Positions 5,658 to 63,910 are shown, numbered from the stretch's first letter. The stretch is DNA of 64,000 nt from Promethearchaeia archaeon (GCA_029856155.1 JAHQWL010000072.1:32001-96000), one strand, 5' to 3'. The notes: generated by a model not told the origin, from the sequence alone. Numbers and translations are program-made.

Positions 5658-6930
5658 TGAGAAATATTTAAAAAGGATTTTCCAAGCATACTATAAAGAA
5701 AAACAATCTGAAATTCCATTAGTTAATCTTTATGAACAAAGAGAATTTGGATTCATTCCTTGGGAGAAATTAATAATGATAAGGCATATAGGATTTAATT
5801 CTTCTGTGAATTTGAAAAAATATTTCATAGCTAATACTCCAAAACATGCTTATGCGAGTGGTTCACTGTATCTTCAACCTGAAAATCAGGATATGCTAGG
5901 GAAAGGGTATCAAGGATGTGATTTGATTTTTGATATTGATGTTGATCACTTCTATACGCCTTGTAAAGAGGATCATGATATCTGGTATTGTAAAGAATGT
6001 GGAGAGAATGGAAGAGGTATGGTACAGAAGTGCCCAAAATGTGGTAAATTAAAATTAAAGAAAATTACTTGGATTTGTGAAGATTGTTTAGATGCTGCTA
6101 AAAATGAGATTATTAAGTTAATTTATAACTTTTTAATTCCCGATTTTAATATTGATATCGAAAAGATGAAAATTGCATTTTCAGGACACCGAGGGTATCA
6201 TTTGAAAATTGAAGATGAAAAAATGAGAACCCTGACTAGTGATGAAAGGAGGGAAATTGTTGATTATATGACAGGAGAGAATATTTCATTCGAGATCTTA
6301 GGTTTGCAGGAAAAAGGAGGAAATATATTTGGATTTTCAAGAAAAACAATTGGATGGCCTCAAAAAATAATTAATAAAATTGAAAACATATTAAAAAAAT
6401 CTAACATTGAAATAGAAACTCTGCTATCAGAAAAAAGAACATATAATTTAAGTCAAAATCTAATAGAAAATTTCTTAAACTTTAAGGAAAACTTCCTTAA
6501 AATAATTGAAAATAATAATAATAACAATTGGACCTTAGTCGGCTTTACTTTAAATGCTTGGATTAAATTTTTAAGAACAATAGTTACAGAACTTGGAATC
6601 GAAGTTGATATCCCTGTTACAATCGATACTCACAGATTAATTCGATATCCTGGATCATTACACGGTACTACAGGATTTAAAGTTCAAGAAATATATCATG
6701 ATGATCTCGATCTTTTCAATCCGTTAGACGAATCGAATGAAAAATTAGATCCAATCGTCTTTAAAAGTGAAAAGATAATTACTCAAAAAATCGAAATTAT
6801 TGAAACTAAGATACCAGCAACAAAAATTAAAGGAGAAACATTTGGACCTTACACCCAAGGAGAGAAAATTGAAGTACCTCACCATATTGCTGTTTTTTTA
6901 CTATGTAAAGGAGTAGCTAAAACCATTTAA
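5641..6930 (+). CDS. priS: DNA primase small subunit PriS (start may be 5650)
   Basis: REFGF, DLIFDIDVD, FSGHRGYH, VTIDTHRLIRYPGSLH; Zn-finger insert; C-terminal GINS-B-like domain. Confidence 0.97.
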   Translation: MKKMADEKYLKRIFQAYYKEKQSEIPLVNLYEQREFGFIPWEKLIMIRHIGFNSSVNLKKYFIANTPKHAYASGSLYLQPENQDMLGKGYQGCDLIFDIDVDHFYTPCKEDHDIWYCKECGENGRGMVQKCPKCGKLKLKKITWICEDCLDAAKNEIIKLIYNFLIPDFNIDIEKMKIAFSGHRGYHLKIEDEKMRTLTSDERREIVDYMTGENISFEILGLQEKGGNIFGFSRKTIGWPQKIINKIENILKKSNIEIETLLSEKRTYNLSQNLIENFLNFKENFLKIIENNNNNNWTLVGFTLNAWIKFLRTIVTELGIEVDIPVTIDTHRLIRYPGSLHGTTGFKVQEIYHDDLDLFNPLDESNEKLDPIVFKSEKIITQKIEIIETKIPATKIKGETFGPYTQGEKIEVPHHIAVFLLCKGVAKTI

Positions 6931-54755: not shown

Positions 54756-55994
54756 ATGTCTTCAGAAGCTTCTAGTTTTATAAAAGTCTTTTCGAAATTC
54801 TTGGATCCAGAATCCGTGAAAATTGATAAATTACATAAGGTTGATGATATTATAAAATTACCAATTCTATCATACAAATTTATAGATAAAGAAGAATCGA
54901 CCATAATGAAGCAGCTACTAGAAATTTCTACAATTGGAGATGCTTCTAAGTTAAATAAAGATGATCCATTTGAAAGCTTAACTGAAATTGAAGAAACAGA
55001 TGATTCAATTGAATTAACAGCAAGTCTACAACAAAAACTTGAGGAATTAAAGGTCAAATACCCCACTCTTGAAGAAAAATTAAAGAAAACTATCACCATC
55101 AGCTCACTTATTGTGAGTGTTAAAGAAGAAAAAGAAGGAATTGACGAAACAGCACAAAAAGTACTTGTTGCGGGACTTGATAATGCTGGAAAAACAGCAA
55201 CACTATCAAAATTTGGCGGACGATTAGGAATAAGTGATATGATCTCAACACATCCCACGAAAGGAGTTGTTCGAATGAAATTTGGAAGCAGTCATTTAAA
55301 CTTATTTATCTGGGATTTAGGTGGGCAAGAAGAATATAGGGAGAGGTATTTAAAGAATCCAGAGCAATATTTTATGATGCTTGATTTGCTAATTTATGTA
55401 ATAGATGTACAAGATCCAGATAGATTTGATGATGCTCTTGAATATTTTGAGAAAATTATAAACTCAATAATTTTATTGGAAGAAAATCCGTATATATTAC
55501 TTTTTATCCATAAATATGACCCAGACTTGAAGAATAACCCTAAAATTCTCTTAAATATAGAACTTCTAAAGGATAATATTAATGAACTATTTAAAACCAA
55601 GAATTATGATCTTCATTTGGAGATTTATTTAACATCAATATACTCATTGATCTCACGCGAACCACAATTCGCAAAATACATAAAGAATCTTATGAGTGCT
55701 AGTTATTCTTTGAGTGATCCTACAGTTAGGAAAGTTGAAGGTCTTGGAAAAACATTAGAAGAAACATTAAATGCGGTTATTCGACTATCAGAAAGTATTT
55801 CCACACAACTCAATGAACTTGACAATCGTCTTAGAGCTATAGAATCAGGAGCATTTCAAATTGCTCAAAGTGGGTTCCCTATTGAAATTGCCAACCCAAA
55901 TCAACCTTCAGCAAGGCCTCAAGAAAGTGCAAGGCTACAAGTATTAAATGAACTAAAGGATTTATTTGGTAAGAGACGTAGATTGGATCTTTAA
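54756..55994 (+). CDS. Extended Arf/Rag-like small GTPase
   Basis: GLDNAGKT, PTKG, WDLGGQ, HKYD, TSI; N-terminal extension and C-terminal coiled coil. Confidence 0.88.
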   Translation: MSSEASSFIKVFSKFLDPESVKIDKLHKVDDIIKLPILSYKFIDKEESTIMKQLLEISTIGDASKLNKDDPFESLTEIEETDDSIELTASLQQKLEELKVKYPTLEEKLKKTITISSLIVSVKEEKEGIDETAQKVLVAGLDNAGKTATLSKFGGRLGISDMISTHPTKGVVRMKFGSSHLNLFIWDLGGQEEYRERYLKNPEQYFMMLDLLIYVIDVQDPDRFDDALEYFEKIINSIILLEENPYILLFIHKYDPDLKNNPKILLNIELLKDNINELFKTKNYDLHLEIYLTSIYSLISREPQFAKYIKNLMSASYSLSDPTVRKVEGLGKTLEETLNAVIRLSESISTQLNELDNRLRAIESGAFQIAQSGFPIEIANPNQPSARPQESARLQVLNELKDLFGKRRRLDL

Positions 55995-56722
55995 ACCTTT
56001 ACTCTCTTCTTTTTTAATAAGGCTTGAATTGTTTTATTAATAGCCAGTAAAAATATAATAAGGAATATACATAAAGAAAGCATTAAATAACCAATATTAT
56101 TCAATAACATTGGATTGATTTGTCGATACTGAATTTCAAATTCAATAAACTGTTCAAAGTAAATTAAAGTGTGTAAAATAAGTGGACCGGTTAGAAACAC
56201 TGTTATTAAAAAGCCTATAATCCCAATGATGCAACCAAATATGACATCTGAAGGGTAATGTACACCAAGCTGAATTCTTGAAAAAGAGACTAAAGCAGCG
56301 AAAAAAAACGCCAAAATACTTATAATTGGTGATTTTAAAAAGAATAATCCAAATATTAAACCATATGCCATAACATTATAAGAGTGCCAAGATGGAAAAC
56401 TTCTTGAGGTTGGTGTTCGCTCAAAAACAGTAATTTTATCTTTTTCAAATCTTTCAAACGGTCTTTTTCTTTTTACAATTTGTTTTATTAGTAAAATTAG
56501 AATTAACCCTGTAAGAAATATAGCAGAGATATAGGATAATAAAAAAGGATCATACCAAATAAATAAATAGAAGGCGATTAAAAAAAGCCATAGAGTTTCT
56601 CTTCCAAAAAAAGAAAAAACTCTTAAAATGAAGGTTATTGGTTTACCACCTAAACCATTATATTTTAAAATAATTTTTTGATCCCATTGATCGATTCTAT
56701 TTGAAAATTCTTTAAATTCCAT
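55991..56722 (-). CDS. PAP2-family membrane phosphatase
   Basis: K...KR.RP, SFPSWH, SRIQLGVHYPSDV. Confidence 0.92.
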   Translation of the reverse strand: MEFKEFSNRIDQWDQKIILKYNGLGGKPITFILRVFSFFGRETLWLFLIAFYLFIWYDPFLLSYISAIFLTGLILILLIKQIVKRKRPFERFEKDKITVFERTPTSRSFPSWHSYNVMAYGLIFGLFFLKSPIISILAFFFAALVSFSRIQLGVHYPSDVIFGCIIGIIGFLITVFLTGPLILHTLIYFEQFIEFEIQYRQINPMLLNNIGYLMLSLCIFLIIFLLAINKTIQALLKKKRVKV

Positions 56723-56745
56723 AATAAATTAAATATTATATTTTT

Positions 56746-57540
56746 TTAAATTTGGTTCAATAACTTATAGGCATCTATTAATTTGGGGATTTTATCTTTA
56801 AAATAGTCTAAAGAATGTGAATCGGATCCAACGAAAAATCCTGCTCCTTCTTTCTTTAACTGCTTCATAACATCCATAGATGGAAACGTTCTCTTTATTG
56901 GAAATCGCAATCCAGAAAGATTTAATTCTATTTTTATTCTATTTTTTATACATAAACGACCTAAATCTATTACGCGATCATGAGAGATATCACAATCATC
57001 TGTAGGTATGAATTCATTATTATTAATATAGCGAAAGATAGTATCAATATGACAGATATTTTTGAATATTTGTGAATTTATCATTTTAGTACTTAGTTCA
57101 AAATAATCATCTATAATTTGTCTCATCGGTAATTTTTCTAATAATTTAGTCAATCCAGCTTTTGTTGTAATGGGATAACCAATTATCCACTCATGAATAG
57201 ATCCTCCAATGAAATCTAATTCCTCCCCATAATCATCCATAAATTCCATTAGTTTAATTTCCTTATCCTTATAATAGTCAACTTCAAGTCCGCTTAAGAT
57301 AAAATCATACGTTTCTTTATATATATCAATCTCCTCAAGATAGTCATCTATTTTGCCATTATAGAAGGGATTAGTCTTATCATTTTCAACATAATGAAGT
57401 TCATAATGATCAAGAAAACAGACATTAATTTGTTGTTCTTCAGCAACTCTTATATAATCTTCAAAAGTGGGTCCTTCTTCTGCTACATCTACACTCCAAG
57501 GTTTGGTATGAACATGATAATCTGTAAACTTAAACCGCAT
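56746..57540 (-). CDS. PHP-domain phosphatase (histidinol-phosphatase-like)
   Basis: DYHVHT, DH, GLEVD, GSIH, HID, GSDSH. Confidence 0.88.
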   Translation of the reverse strand: MRFKFTDYHVHTKPWSVDVAEEGPTFEDYIRVAEEQQINVCFLDHYELHYVENDKTNPFYNGKIDDYLEEIDIYKETYDFILSGLEVDYYKDKEIKLMEFMDDYGEELDFIGGSIHEWIIGYPITTKAGLTKLLEKLPMRQIIDDYFELSTKMINSQIFKNICHIDTIFRYINNNEFIPTDDCDISHDRVIDLGRLCIKNRIKIELNLSGLRFPIKRTFPSMDVMKQLKKEGAGFFVGSDSHSLDYFKDKIPKLIDAYKLLNQI

Positions 57541-57589: not shown

Positions 57590-59479
57590 TTATTCCATAG
57601 AATCTTCTTTATCAAAAAAAACTTCATAAAACAATTCTTTTTCTCCAGCTTCGGGAGGAGTTATTTTTGTATATCCACCTGTTTGAATAATACGAACAGC
57701 TCTTTTATTTTGAATATGAATGTTTCCATATAATCCTTTTAATCCTTTCTCTTTTGCAATGATAATTATCTCTTGATATAGAAAAGCTCCAATTCCTTTT
57801 CCTCTATAATCTTCTCTCACAATGAAACTATATTCTCCCATATTTAATTTAGAGTTTAAATAGTAGGTTGCATTTCCAATCATTTTTTGATGTCCAATTT
57901 CACCTATAAAGGCACCAATCGAAAAAATGTTGTTATAATCAATATTAACTTCAAATTGAGTTTTGGAGTGAGTGAACTCTTTTTTTAGTTCAAAGAATCT
58001 TAAATATCTATCTCTCTCGCTCAAGGAGTAATATAAGTCTTTTAATAAGGGCTCATCAGTAGTTTTCACAGGACGGATTCTTACTTTTTCCTTTTCAATT
58101 GTAGTATAAACAGTCTCATATTCTGAAGGATAAATACAAATACGACCTTTCTCATCACAGGGTAATAATTGATCAGAATAAATATACTTCAAGTTTTTAG
58201 CAGCACTTAACAATAATTGCCTAAACTTCGGATGGGCTATACAAATTAGTTCGATTACTCTTTCGCGAATACTTTTTCCATGCAGATAAGCAACACCCCA
58301 TTCAGTCACTACATAATGTACATCTCCACGTGGAAACATTATCCCTGCTCCTTCATCTAAATGAGGTACGATACGTGATTTTTTCCCATCTCGTGAAGTA
58401 GATGGGATAATTATGATTGGTTTACCTCCCTTAGAAAAAGCAGCTCCTCTCATAAAATCAATTGTTTCACCAAGTCCGGAATAGAAACGATAACCCTCTG
58501 TTGAGGCATTTACTTGCCCTGTTAAATCAATCTGCCGAGCAGAATTTATAGAAACCATATTGTTATTCATTCCAATATTTCGAGGGTTGCATACATAATC
58601 GGATGGATGAAACTCAATGAAAGGATTGTTATCTACAAATTTATATAATTTTCTTGTACCCAAAGCAAAACTAGTAATAATTTTTTCAATGTGGAAATTC
58701 TTTTTTCGGCAAGTCAAAACACCTTCTTCTATAAGTGGTATTATATTATCTGTGATATAGTGAGAATGCATTCCTAAATGTTTTTTATCTCCTAGACACC
58801 TTAGTGCAGCATTTGGAAGATCTCCAAAACCTACATGAATTGTTGATTTGTTTTCTATTAGATTTGCTAAATTTTTACATATTCTAACAGCGATTTCGTC
58901 GGGTTCATCAAAGTGAAACTCTAGCAATGGAGTATCATTATATACAAAATAATCTATTTCTTTCATATGAATAAAACTATTTCCTAAAGTACGAGGCATC
59001 TGGGGATTAATTTCAGCAATAGTCATATAAGATGATTGTGCTATTGGTTTAGCAATGTCTACATTAATTCCTAAAGAACAAAAACCGTACGGATCAGGAG
59101 GAGAAACTTGAATGAGAGCGACATCAATATGCTTCCGACCAGTTAAAAATAATGGAGGAATTTCACTAGCATATATTGGTGTATAATCTGCCTGTCCCTT
59201 ATTAATTTCCTCACGAAGAGTCTTCCCTATAAAAAATGCATTATGTCTAAAAAGATCCTCTGCTTTATCTTTAAAATATTTTTCAGGACCTATAGTTAAA
59301 AAATGGAGAATTTCAGTATCTATTAGTTTTTCTGAATTTTTTATTAATTCCGAGGTTAAGAGCTGAGGTTCAGAGCATCCTGAGTCTATAAAAACCCTAT
59401 TCCCTGAAATAATTTTTCCTATTGCTTGTTGGGCAGTAATTTCCTTATTCTTCCACTTTTCTTTCCAAGTAAAATCCAT
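57590..59479 (-). CDS. Acetyl-CoA hydrolase/transferase-like domain fused to Pat-type GNAT acetyltransferase
   Basis: DVALIQVSPPD, SINSA..IDLTGQV, VVTEWG, IAHPKFR; C-terminal IRP..D...LS..RYLRFF, EYSF.V...RGKGIG. Confidence 0.88.
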   Translation of the reverse strand: MDFTWKEKWKNKEITAQQAIGKIISGNRVFIDSGCSEPQLLTSELIKNSEKLIDTEILHFLTIGPEKYFKDKAEDLFRHNAFFIGKTLREEINKGQADYTPIYASEIPPLFLTGRKHIDVALIQVSPPDPYGFCSLGINVDIAKPIAQSSYMTIAEINPQMPRTLGNSFIHMKEIDYFVYNDTPLLEFHFDEPDEIAVRICKNLANLIENKSTIHVGFGDLPNAALRCLGDKKHLGMHSHYITDNIIPLIEEGVLTCRKKNFHIEKIITSFALGTRKLYKFVDNNPFIEFHPSDYVCNPRNIGMNNNMVSINSARQIDLTGQVNASTEGYRFYSGLGETIDFMRGAAFSKGGKPIIIIPSTSRDGKKSRIVPHLDEGAGIMFPRGDVHYVVTEWGVAYLHGKSIRERVIELICIAHPKFRQLLLSAAKNLKYIYSDQLLPCDEKGRICIYPSEYETVYTTIEKEKVRIRPVKTTDEPLLKDLYYSLSERDRYLRFFELKKEFTHSKTQFEVNIDYNNIFSIGAFIGEIGHQKMIGNATYYLNSKLNMGEYSFIVREDYRGKGIGAFLYQEIIIIAKEKGLKGLYGNIHIQNKRAVRIIQTGGYTKITPPEAGEKELFYEVFFDKEDSME

Positions 59480-59745
59480 TGCATTTATTCACTCCATTGA
59501 GAATGCTCACACTCAAATATAAATTTATTTTTCATTAATTTTATATCTAATTAAACTGATATTTCTATTTTCACTCATTTATAATTTTTGAAATTATAAA
59601 TAAAATGTTTAAATTTCATTCATCTCTTTTTTGAATTAGAACATTTCTTTTGAAATGATATATTTTAAATGGTATCATTAAATAAAAATTAAAAGTATAC
59701 TAAATGAACTTCTAATTTAATGAAATTCAAAAATGTGAAGAAAAA

Positions 59746-61725
59746 ATGTCTAAAGAAGAAAGAATGGAAAGTATTCTAACGGAAAATCGAATTTTTAATC
59801 CCATTGATCTAAATCCTAAATTTGCAAAAACTGGGATGACAATGGATGAATATAAAAAACTTTATACACAATCAATAGAAGATATGGAAGGCTTCTGGGA
59901 TGAACAAGCAAAATCTATAGATTGGTTCAAACCCTACGATAAAGTTTGGGAAAAAACTGATCTATTTCCTGGTAAATGGTTTGTTGGTGGAAAACTTAAT
60001 GTAAGTTATAACGCTTTAGATAGGCATGTTAAAGCTGGAAAAGGAGATAAAATTGCGCTAATCTGGGAAGCAGACGAACCTGGAAATGTAAGAAAATTTA
60101 CTTATAAAGCCCTTTTGAAAGAAGTTAGTAAAGTTGCTAATAGAATGAAAAAGTTAGGATTGAAAAAAGGAGATCGAGTGACTATATGGTTACCTATGAT
60201 TCCTGAGCTTGCGATCATCATGCTAGCTTGCGCTCGAATAGGTGTGATTCATTCAATTGTATTTGGTGGATTCTCGAAAGAAGCTGTTAAAGGTAGAATT
60301 GAAGATTCTAATTCTCGAATACTATTCACGAGTGATGAAACCTTAAGAGCTGGGAAATTTTACCCAAAAATGGAAGATGTCGTTCAAATTATCAATGATG
60401 TTCCTACTATAGAACACGTTGTTGTTGTACAACGTTCTGGAAGAGAGATATCCCATACTGAAAAGGATATTTGGTATCATGACTTTATTGATGGTATGAG
60501 CGAAGAATGTGAACCCGAAGCTATGGATTCTGAAGATACATTATTTATTTTATATACAAGCGGAACAACTGGAAAACCCAAAGGAGTAAAACATACTACT
60601 GCAGGATATACACTATATACTTCATTTACTCACAGAGTTGTTTTTAATTATCATGAAAAAGATATCTGGTATTGTACTGCTGATATTGGATGGATAACGG
60701 GGCATTCTTACATAGTTTATGGGCCATTAGTAAATGGTGCTACATCATTAATGTTCGAAGGTGTTCCAACGTATCCAGATGTTGATCGATTTTGGGATAT
60801 TGTCGAACGTCATAAAGTAACTCATTTTTATACAGCACCCACTGCAATACGTGCTTTAATGAGATATGGTGATGAACCAGTAAAAAAACATAACTTAAGT
60901 TCATTAAAAGTGCTTGGAACTGTTGGTGAACCAATAAATCCAGAAGCTTGGACTTGGTATCATCGAGTAATAGGTAAAGAACGCTGTCCAATTGTTGATA
61001 CCTACTGGCAAACTGAAACTGGAGGATTTATTATGACTCCAATAGCTACTGCAACTCCTACAAAACCGGGATCTTGCTGTGTACCATTTTTGGGGATTAA
61101 ACCGGTGATCTTTGATTTAGAGGGTGAAGTGATTACAGAACCAAACGAAGGTGGATACTTAGCAATTGCTCAAAGTTGGCCGGGTATGTTACGCGATGTT
61201 TGGGGTGATACTGAGAGATTTAAATCAACTTATCTCGAAAAATATCCTGGGCATTATTACACAGGTGATGGAGCTCGACGAGATGAAGATGGATATTACT
61301 GGATTTTAGGTAGACTTGATGATGTTATTAAAGTGTCAGGACATAGAATAGGTACTATGGAAGTCGAGTCTGCTCTTGTAAGCCACCCTAATGTTGCAGA
61401 AGCTGCTGTTGCTCCTTTTCCTCACAAAATCAAAGGTCAAGCAATTTGGGCATTTGTGACTTTAATTCAGGGAGTCCAAAAATCAGCTAAATTAGCTAAT
61501 GAAATCAGGATGCATGTAAGAACAGAAATAGGACCTGTTTTCCAACCAGATGTAATTCAATTTGCTGATGACTTACCAAAAACTCGAAGTGGTAAGATAA
61601 TGAGGCGAATTTTAAAAGCAATTGCTGCAGGCACTGATATTGGAAATGTGACTACTTTAGCTGATCCTTCCGTTGTAGAATCTTTATTAGAGGAACGTAA
61701 AAAGATGGATGTAGAAATAGGTTAA
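59746..61725 (+). CDS. acs: AMP-forming acetyl-CoA synthetase
   Basis: YTSGTTGKPKG, VGEPINPEAW, DTYWQTETG, PKTRSGKIMRR. Confidence 0.98.
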   Translation: MSKEERMESILTENRIFNPIDLNPKFAKTGMTMDEYKKLYTQSIEDMEGFWDEQAKSIDWFKPYDKVWEKTDLFPGKWFVGGKLNVSYNALDRHVKAGKGDKIALIWEADEPGNVRKFTYKALLKEVSKVANRMKKLGLKKGDRVTIWLPMIPELAIIMLACARIGVIHSIVFGGFSKEAVKGRIEDSNSRILFTSDETLRAGKFYPKMEDVVQIINDVPTIEHVVVVQRSGREISHTEKDIWYHDFIDGMSEECEPEAMDSEDTLFILYTSGTTGKPKGVKHTTAGYTLYTSFTHRVVFNYHEKDIWYCTADIGWITGHSYIVYGPLVNGATSLMFEGVPTYPDVDRFWDIVERHKVTHFYTAPTAIRALMRYGDEPVKKHNLSSLKVLGTVGEPINPEAWTWYHRVIGKERCPIVDTYWQTETGGFIMTPIATATPTKPGSCCVPFLGIKPVIFDLEGEVITEPNEGGYLAIAQSWPGMLRDVWGDTERFKSTYLEKYPGHYYTGDGARRDEDGYYWILGRLDDVIKVSGHRIGTMEVESALVSHPNVAEAAVAPFPHKIKGQAIWAFVTLIQGVQKSAKLANEIRMHVRTEIGPVFQPDVIQFADDLPKTRSGKIMRRILKAIAAGTDIGNVTTLADPSVVESLLEERKKMDVEIG

Positions 61726-63714: not shown

Positions 63715-63760
63715 AATTTAAAATTCATCTAAAAATAATTCTCTTCCATTATTTTTTTTT

Positions 63761-63910
63761 CCTTAGATCCAATATGGTAAGATAATGTGAAGAATATTAA
63801 AAGCTATTACCGCTACCACTGATTTTGGAAATATAAAAAAACTAGCAGATCCGTTTGTTGTAGATGCTCTATTAGAACAACGTAAGAAAATGGATATAGA
63901 GATGGGTTAA
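63761..63910 (+). pseudogene. Decayed copy of the acs 3' end
   Basis: GKIM*RILKAITATTDFGNIKKLADPFVVDALLEQRKKMDIEMG*, colinear with 61576-61725. Confidence 0.85.

Follow-up and report, generated by a model that had tools for sequence, protein, structure and literature searches.

How lysine acetylation can control metabolism is usually illustrated by the reversible acetylation of acetyl-coenzyme A (acetyl-CoA) synthetase, Acs. Known writers of this modification either have no sensor, as is the case of AcuA, or carry an inactive ADP-forming synthetase domain or a domain that binds cyclic AMP (cAMP), NADP or an amino acid; both Pat and AcuA acetylate the catalytic lysine of Acs in other organisms. 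For Asgard archaea, to our knowledge, experiments have established almost nothing about how carbon metabolism is controlled after translation. Here we describe a gene in a 64,000-nucleotide stretch from a Promethearchaeia archaeon (GCA_029856155.1, JAHQWL010000072.1:32001-96000; hereafter the window) that encodes a family I CoA-transferase-like domain fused to a Pat-type GNAT domain and lies divergent from acs. An earlier note, made from the window's sequence, had proposed that a dead CoA-transferase serves here as the allosteric sensor of an Acs acetylation switch. The analysis reported below indicates that the locus most likely encodes a Pat-like Acs switch with an accessory domain of an undescribed kind.

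The host is an uncultured Lokiarchaeia-type Asgard archaeon represented by a metagenome-assembled genome (MAG; 4.1 Mb, 97% complete, G+C content about 30%). Near-identical fusion proteins, also from MAGs, carry the labels Promethearchaeota, Lokiarchaeota and Hermodarchaeota.

Domain composition and replaced active-site residues

The N-terminal part of the fusion protein belongs with the 4-hydroxybutyrate CoA-transferases. Pfam models PF02550 (6e-28) and PF13336 (2e-60) match residues 17-426, followed by PF00583 (7.7e-9) at residues 504-597, and phmmer aligns the N-terminal domain with solved 4-hydroxybutyrate CoA-transferases at 1e-92 to 1e-115 (9vag, 1.8e-115; also 3eh7 and 2oas) and 33-41% identity. 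The AlphaFold 2 (AF2) model of the fusion has a predicted local distance difference test (pLDDT) score of 91.5 and a predicted template-modelling (pTM) score of 0.88. Its N-domain superimposes on 2oas, a structure solved with CoA, with a template-modelling (TM) score of 0.95 and a root-mean-square deviation of 1.5 Å (Foldseek); TM scores for 3gk7 and 2oas lie between 0.92 and 0.95. Both the Pfam matches and the Foldseek result show the two-lobed alpha/beta fold of class I CoA-transferases.

Class I CoA-transferases depend on a catalytic glutamate for a ping-pong mechanism that passes through a glutamyl-CoA thioester (Glu249 in RipA; PMC3180442). In AarC, the backbone NH of the strictly conserved Gly388 forms the external oxyanion hole, and Asn347 the internal one, where it buttresses Glu294 (PMC4876117). 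None of these hallmarks, i.e., the Glu nucleophile, the external oxyanion glycine of the G-G-Q loop and the internal oxyanion asparagine, is found in the window protein. Alignment to 9vag, 3eh7 and 2oas (phmmer) sets LGMHSHY against LG[VI]HTE[ML], with His240 in the column where all three enzymes have Glu, and SGLGETIDF against SG[FTV]GGQ[LVM]D[FY]. Both departures, from LGxH[ST]E and from SGxGGQxDF, had been read in the earlier note down to the position of the histidine codon (Table 1), and the alignments bear them out; the Gln215-to-His and Asn297-to-Cys changes come in addition to those it had listed.

Among database clusters with at least 73% identity, 120 of 120 share the loss of the catalytic Glu (His in 115, Tyr or Leu in five), which therefore is not a matter of chance, and all 120 carry G[ED]T in the loop, one of them as GES. 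Columns conserved in at least 85% of 61 intact enzymes (those with Glu and GGQ) were then compared with 121 clusters of the clade to which the window protein belongs. Sixty-three of the 70 family-conserved columns are unchanged in this clade. The seven that differ are D210N, G211K, Q215H, E240H, N297C, G338E/D and Q339T. No cluster has Glu at the nucleophile column, where His240 is present in 96%; His215 is found in 121 of 121, as is Cys297, replacing the internal oxyanion Asn that 93% of intact enzymes possess; and position 338 is always acidic (Glu in 65 clusters, Asp in 56). The correspondence between position 215 and AarC residue 267 is the first aligned pair of the tool's own output; that of positions 240, 297 and 338 with AarC residues 294, 347 and 388 derives from offsets of 50-54, with no residue-by-residue alignment.

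Pairwise ratios of nonsynonymous to synonymous substitution rates (dN/dS; NG86 method) are 0.04-0.08 in the CoA-transferase domain and 0.05-0.09 in the GNAT. These values and the 63 retained columns rule out a decaying pseudogene or degenerating domain; together with the superposition of the AF2 model on 2oas, they indicate that the fold and most of the surface have been maintained and the catalytic apparatus selectively replaced. To judge from the aligned sequences, Glu-dependent CoA-transferase chemistry is probably no longer possible in the N-domain. The description of the domain as dead thus stands as far as the nucleophile and both oxyanion residues are concerned, the domain being under strong purifying selection all the same; it is less secure at position 338, where a conserved acidic residue near Cys297 and His240 might form part of a rebuilt site.

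The C-terminal part was searched on its own against the PDB (residues 439-629, phmmer). It matches the GNAT of Streptomyces lividans PatA (SlPatA; 4nxy, 3e-11), Pat (9it0/9isq, 3.6e-11), Sulfolobus Pat (3f8k, 2.7e-8) and Mycobacterium Pat (4orf, 3.9e-5). The NCBIfam model NF058543 is matched at 4.9e-10. The top PDB matches are characterised protein acetyltransferases, which rank above small-molecule GNATs of the phosphinothricin type. The Pat-like features pointed out in the earlier note (LS..DRYLRFF, GEYSF and RGKGIG) are all present; a YP...RP...D...Y.RFF lead-in is shared with Pat/PatA, RGKGIG is an intact acetyl-CoA motif of the form R/Q-x-x-G-x-G/A, and Glu549, conserved throughout the clade, aligns with Glu809 of Pat (9it0). 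Pfam finds no CoA_binding, Succ_CoA_lig or ATP-grasp domain, the hallmark of type I/II Pat, in the fusion protein. By these similarities, the C-terminal part is recognisable as a Pat-type protein lysine acetyltransferase domain.

Linkage to acs and history of the fusion

The gene across the divergent region is a clear acs (954 bits with TIGR02188, whose cut-off is 725) and, according to tblastn of the window's own genome, the sole bona fide copy, accompanied by about 20 distant AMP-binding paralogues. Its product contains the PKTRSGK motif; this, and the 266 bp that it shares with the fusion gene, agree with the earlier reading. The pairing recurs in the relatives. Among 59 genomes carrying the clade with the His/Cys/acidic combination, 56 have enough flank to be scored, and acs is adjacent in 53 of these, spread over nine genera (52 divergent, one convergent; median gap between divergent open reading frames, ORFs, about 244 bp). 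None of 47 loci from other, mostly intact, Asgard fusion clades has acs or an AMP-binding gene within about 3.5 kb. The GNAT-Acs link draws support from this difference and from the survival of the pair in a genus that lost the N-domain (see below). A sister form (P0125, family f3) has no acs in the 1.4 kb upstream, where its contig ends, too short a distance to conclude from. In one genus of the clade, g15, an HDAC gene lies beside the fusion.

Alignment of 12 orthologous intergenic regions shows a block of about 58 bp to be near-invariant, the remainder of the spacer diverging. The block contains a 7-bp inverted repeat (TGAAATT at 59589 and AATTTCA at 59612, 16 bp apart) flanking TATA-like A/T boxes. 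It is a candidate for a promoter or operator common to acs and the acetyltransferase gene.

Genus g12, from the same family, has acs and no fusion. In all three of its genomes, a stand-alone GNAT gene is divergent from acs. Its product begins at the YP.QYET lead-in, is 54-66% identical to the GNAT of the clade and groups with it (support of 96 in the SH-like approximate likelihood ratio test, SH-aLRT), the fused P0125 form falling outside the group. Fusion residues ~46-449 are deleted, and a relic of residues 7-45 (about the first 40 codons), out of frame and terminated by a stop, persists just upstream of the GNAT. The arrangement reads as the loss of the pseudo-transferase domain by internal deletion, with the GNAT and acs still paired; this genus can dispense with the domain. 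The relic (L212:4748-4846, L217:3101-3217 and L218:2502-2618) has been conserved in three species, where it may now serve as an upstream ORF.

Phylogenetic trees were built with FastTree for the transferase domain and with IQ-TREE (LG+C20 PMSF, quick) for the full-length proteins, and both agree. The Asgard fusions all fall in a single group (support 96-98), within which the intact forms branch first. A form with a Glu-to-Asp change and GGM or GGL in the loop (genera g6, g10 and g11) is sister (support 80-86) to the window-containing clade, itself supported at 100 and made up of a Phe/Ser/Asp form (P0125) and the His/Cys/acidic form. The latter was found in nine genera, all of family f1. Lokiarchaeum ossiferum (L144), from the same order as the window genome, has the motifs of the Glu-to-Asp form (LGIHSDS, GGL); it was not placed in the trees. 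In the window's own genus, 53 of 53 sampled genomes match the fusion (E <= 1e-100), membership in the clade being confirmed only for those whose loci were examined.

The window's genome also encodes an intact stand-alone CoA-transferase (contig C38) and, on contig C26, a fused paralogue (52% identity) with Glu and GGQ in place. This paralogue (L009:4608-6512) and its orthologues read R-x-x-G-x-T in the acetyl-CoA loop of the GNAT, across genera. The C26 clade having an intact transferase and this altered GNAT loop, the two paralogues appear to have diverged in opposite domains. The neighbours of the C26 paralogue (HhH-GPD glycosylase, radical SAM enzyme, TatD and UxuA) were considered as a hint to a target and proved uninformative. 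Elsewhere on the same contig (G000 contig C26:162700-166972), a sirtuin gene adjoins two tandem AMP-binding acyl-CoA synthetase paralogues, a neighbourhood suggesting that other synthetases of this genome, too, undergo reversible acylation.

The acs genes of some relatives have a single internal TAA or TAG, which is explained by exact 30-nt insertions at two conserved sites, DTYWQ|TETGG and GEPI|NPEAW (L104:578-607, L137:2225-2254, L136:3405-3434, L110:1466-1495 and 1568-1597, L107:6306-6335 and 6201-6230, L108:36-65); the window's acs is free of them. Each contains an in-frame stop and a hairpin with a stem of 8-9 bp and a 5-nt loop, the stem covarying between species. They look like mini-introns of the tRNA type (bulge-helix-bulge, BHB).

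Relatives of the fusion extend well beyond the Asgard archaea. When one genome per species was scanned, at least 596 related loci came back; among the best 80 are Planctomycetota, Anaerolineae, Myxococcota, Smithella, WOR-3, Acidobacteriota, Thermoplasmata and Methanobacteriota. In 70 loci outside the clade, mostly bacterial, nearly all catalytic motifs are intact. Within 5 kb of these 70, there is a bona fide Acs in nine (49-64% identity), an ADP-forming acetyl-CoA synthetase (ACD) in 28 (exemplars have the Pfam domains CoA_binding_2, Succ_CoA_lig and ATP-grasp_5) and an HDAC-family deacetylase in 19 (exemplars PF00850, 1e-82). By chance, acs would be expected in well under 1% of random 10-kb windows. 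Gene orders include ACD-fusion-HDAC (L168), the fusion with a receiver-HDAC gene and then a convergent acs (L170), and acs-MFS-fusion (L153, L165). Across these neighbourhoods, the fusion family behaves as though it supplied the writer to a writer/eraser pair associated with acetyl-CoA synthetases, an arrangement that mirrors Pat/CobB and the divergent acsA-acuABC locus of Bacilli. The N-domain of Pat is itself ACD-like, and the adjacent ACD could by analogy be a partner or a second target of the bacterial fusions. The idea that linkage to acs arises only when the domain is dead is ruled out by these figures for intact fusions.

The bacterial clusters (L168:2819-8006, L170:3369-8093, L165:1456-10246 and L154:2777-6824) also hold MFS transporters and a DRTGG/AAA_26 protein, and the HDAC of L170 is fused to a response-regulator receiver. 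In a library of 1.8 billion proteins, Glu is kept in 47 and GGQ in 21 of 80 fusion cluster representatives; stand-alone representatives keep GGQ in 47 of 61, so that catalysis looks relaxed among the fusions. One stand-alone subfamily (P0206, P0219, P0226 and P0251) reads LGIHSG[ML], with Gly at the Glu column, His at the Asn column and GGQ kept, and may represent a further branch of the family that is non-canonical or wired differently. The labels that related fusions have in databases go no further than 'GNAT family N-acetyltransferase' or 'acyl-CoA hydrolase/GNAT'.

Proposed function and competing explanations

We propose, with a probability of roughly 0.58, that the locus encodes an Acs acetylation switch whose GNAT acetylates Acs at Lys617 and whose N-domain is kept as a regulatory module, probably binding CoA or acyl-CoA. 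A GNAT of the Pat/AcuA kind would target the Acs encoded across the divergent promoter and, using acetyl-CoA, acetylate its catalytic lysine, switching off ATP-consuming acetate activation. Reversal would fall to one of the five sirtuins (SIR2) or four HDAC-type enzymes encoded elsewhere in the genome. The N-domain would occupy the role of the inactive nucleoside diphosphate (NDP)-forming acyl-CoA-synthetase domain of bacterial Pat; its old cleft probably binds CoA or short acyl-CoAs, and it may also dimerise. The active site of CoA-transferases closes differently on CoA and on acyl-CoA, adopting open and closed states (PMC4876117), and ligand sensing in the old CoA cleft is the most attractive option for the N-domain. 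The partnership between GNAT and Acs is well supported by the gene neighbourhoods. That Acs is the substrate, and in which direction regulation runs, we infer; a sensor role for the disabled domain, and with it ligand binding, we infer from conservation.

Several observations weigh against this proposal. Lys617 is the universal catalytic lysine of Acs; it is needed for the postulated regulation and, for that reason, does not discriminate among hypotheses. Three genomes of the clade have acs elsewhere (5.8 kb off, 13 kb off or on another contig). No deacetylase gene is present in the window, where the fusion gene is followed by genes for a HisJ-like phosphatase and a PAP2 protein. Relatives with intact motifs show similar neighbourhoods, so that the Acs connection does not depend on catalytic death. 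The CoA-transferase domain is accessory rather than essential, since genus g12 lost it and kept the GNAT beside acs, and could then be a scaffold instead of a sensor. The conserved His240, Cys297 and acidic residue 338 may amount to a rebuilt site and not to a dead one. The last two points lead to different explanations. The domain might be a structural module only, serving dimerisation or docking of Acs with no ligand sensing, the GNAT still acetylating Acs. RipA and the 4-hydroxybutyrate CoA-transferases are tight dimers (PMC3180442), the high pTM of the model suggests a fixed two-domain body, and nothing is left of the catalytic and oxyanion residues that surrounded the thioester site. All this would suit a scaffold as well as the deletion in g12 does. 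However, the retention of 63 of 70 conserved columns and the invariance of replaced residues such as Cys297 and His215 exceed what a scaffold needs, and dN/dS is as low in the N-domain as in the GNAT; we regard the explanation as unlikely.

That same invariance could instead mean that His240, Cys297 and the acidic residue 338 form, with His215, a new catalytic or covalent-sensing centre. There, Cys297 would be covalently loaded with an acyl group or CoA, for example as an acyl-Cys thioester drawn from acyl-CoA, and by thioesterase, acyl-relay or covalent-sensor chemistry the site would feed or gate the GNAT; if true, this would be regulatory chemistry that is not known from any lysine acetyltransferase. 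The altered positions match AarC residues in mutual contact (Glu294, Asn347 and Gly388), a match made by alignment offsets only, and the combination arose stepwise on one lineage. Against this, position 338 switches freely between Glu and Asp, five clusters have Tyr or Leu in place of His240, the sister clade reads Phe/Ser/Asp and convergence on the set is seen nowhere else in the fusion family, so that we give a rebuilt site little credence. Equally hard to credit is a GNAT that does not act on Acs, the two genes being merely co-regulated within acetate or acyl-CoA metabolism and the true substrate another protein (a different acyl-CoA synthetase, ACD or a chromatin protein) or a small molecule. 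Candidates are at hand in the AMP-binding paralogues of the genome; the commonest bacterial neighbour is ACD and not Acs; and Alba is acetylated by Sulfolobus Pat, which is closely related in sequence. Yet the divergent pairing with acs is kept across nine genera and survives deletion of the N-domain, and a Pat-type GNAT facing a PKTRSGK motif fits the known Pat-Acs pair. The Acs acetylation switch with a regulatory N-domain thus remains our preferred interpretation.

Locus features and comparison with known systems

The features of the locus are collected in Table 1. On the strand of the fusion gene, positions 55991-57540 hold the gene for a HisJ-family PHP phosphatase-like protein and then a PAP2 phosphatase gene, an order kept after the fusion gene in most genomes of the clade. 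The HisJ-like product scores just below the TIGR01856 cut-off (87.7 against 90.2 bits), has no Pfam match and was ruled out as the missing deacetylase on account of this phosphatase-like identity. On the other side, acs is followed by genes for a corrinoid protein and a URO-D/MtaA-like protein and, after them, by a second copy of its own final ~50 codons (63758-63907; 64% protein identity).

Table 1. Coordinates of the fusion gene, acs and associated elements in the window.
Feature	Position	Strand	Basis
Fusion gene, 629 aa: pseudo-CoA-transferase domain and Pat-type GNAT	57590..59479	-	ORF and translation, Pfam, NCBIfam, AF2
Residues 1-430, 4-hydroxybutyrate-CoA-transferase-like domain, catalytically disabled or remodelled	58190..59479	-	phmmer, Foldseek, conserved columns, dN/dS
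His215, in place of the Gln of the LQxGxG motif (AarC Gln267)	58835..58837	-	alignment; PMC4876117
His240, in place of the nucleophile Glu (RipA Glu249, AarC Glu294)	58760..58762	-	alignment; PMC3180442
Cys297, in place of the conserved Asn; position consistent with AarC Asn347, internal oxyanion hole	58589..58591	-	alignment; PMC4876117
Gly337-Glu338-Thr339, in place of the GGQ loop; position consistent with AarC Gly388, external oxyanion hole	58463..58471	-	alignment
Residues 445-629, Pat-type GNAT domain	57593..58147	-	phmmer of the GNAT part alone
Glu549 in GEYSF, aligned to catalytic Pat Glu809 (9it0)	57833..57835	-	alignment
RGKGIG, residues 559-564, acetyl-CoA pyrophosphate-binding motif R/Q-x-x-G-x-G/A	57788..57805	-	sequence
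Divergent intergenic region common to the fusion gene and acs, 266 bp	59480..59745	.	ORF calls
Near-invariant block of ~58 bp, candidate shared promoter/operator	59585..59642	.	12 orthologous intergenic regions aligned
acs, AMP-forming acetyl-CoA synthetase, 659 aa	59746..61725	+	TIGR02188
Lys617 in PKTRSGK, catalytic Lys of Acs	61594..61596	+	sequence
HisJ-family PHP phosphatase-like gene, directly downstream of the fusion gene	56746..57540	-	TIGR01856, synteny

A 2024 review sorts lysine acetyltransferases (KATs) into type I/II, with NDP-forming synthetase-like domains, type III, responding to cAMP, to NADP or to amino acids, as well as types IV/V (PMC11254643); a CoA-transferase-type domain is absent from this I-V classification. 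The earlier note knew of no characterised pseudo-enzyme version of such a fusion, and a search of the full-text literature, subscription journals not covered, found no description of a fusion between a CoA-transferase or acetyl-CoA hydrolase and a GNAT. The locus points to a further and widespread architecture, a CoA-transferase fold joined to a Pat-type GNAT, in many bacterial phyla and several archaeal lineages. It comes as a natural graded series (intact, Glu-to-Asp, fully replaced, domain-deleted) in which the accessory domain's role can be tested directly with recombinant proteins, and it opens one of few ways into the post-translational control of Asgard carbon metabolism.

With the CoA-transferases AbfT, RipA and AarC, the window protein shares the fold, the level of identity and most family-conserved residues, but the Glu nucleophile, the internal-hole Asn and the external-hole Gly are all replaced. 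The paralogous and bacterial CoA-transferase-GNAT fusions have the same architecture and cluster recurrently with acetyl-CoA synthetases and deacetylases; most of them, however, keep Glu, Asn and GGQ, and the C26 paralogue is not linked to acs. In the Bacilli, acsA is divergent from acuABC (PMC13121692); the Bacillus subtilis arrangement resembles the present one in the acetyltransferase gene facing acs and in the HDAC-type (AcuC-like) gene found beside the fusion in genus g15 and in many bacterial relatives. AcuA is nonetheless a single-domain GNAT and not the closest by sequence, and the window has no equivalent of AcuB or AcuC. Type III acetyltransferases (Mycobacterium PatA, 4orf, with cAMP; MxKat, with NADP; the ACT-GNAT proteins) place an N-terminal regulatory domain of ~300-400 aa before a C-terminal Pat-type GNAT, a layout with which that of the fusion (430 aa plus GNAT) agrees, but the N-domain of the fusion is unrelated to their cyclic nucleotide monophosphate (cNMP)-binding, Rossmann and ACT domains. 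The closest solved GNAT relatives, with the catalytic Glu aligned, are Pat/PatZ of Salmonella enterica and E. coli (9it0, 9isq) and S. lividans PatA (4nxy). As in the window protein, the GNAT of Pat/PatZ is fused to a large inactive domain derived from a CoA-thioester enzyme, and the known target of Pat is Acs; the archaeal protein differs in that its accessory domain has the family I CoA-transferase fold (PF02550/PF13336) rather than that of an NDP-forming acyl-CoA synthetase, and measures ~430 aa as against 700-900 aa.

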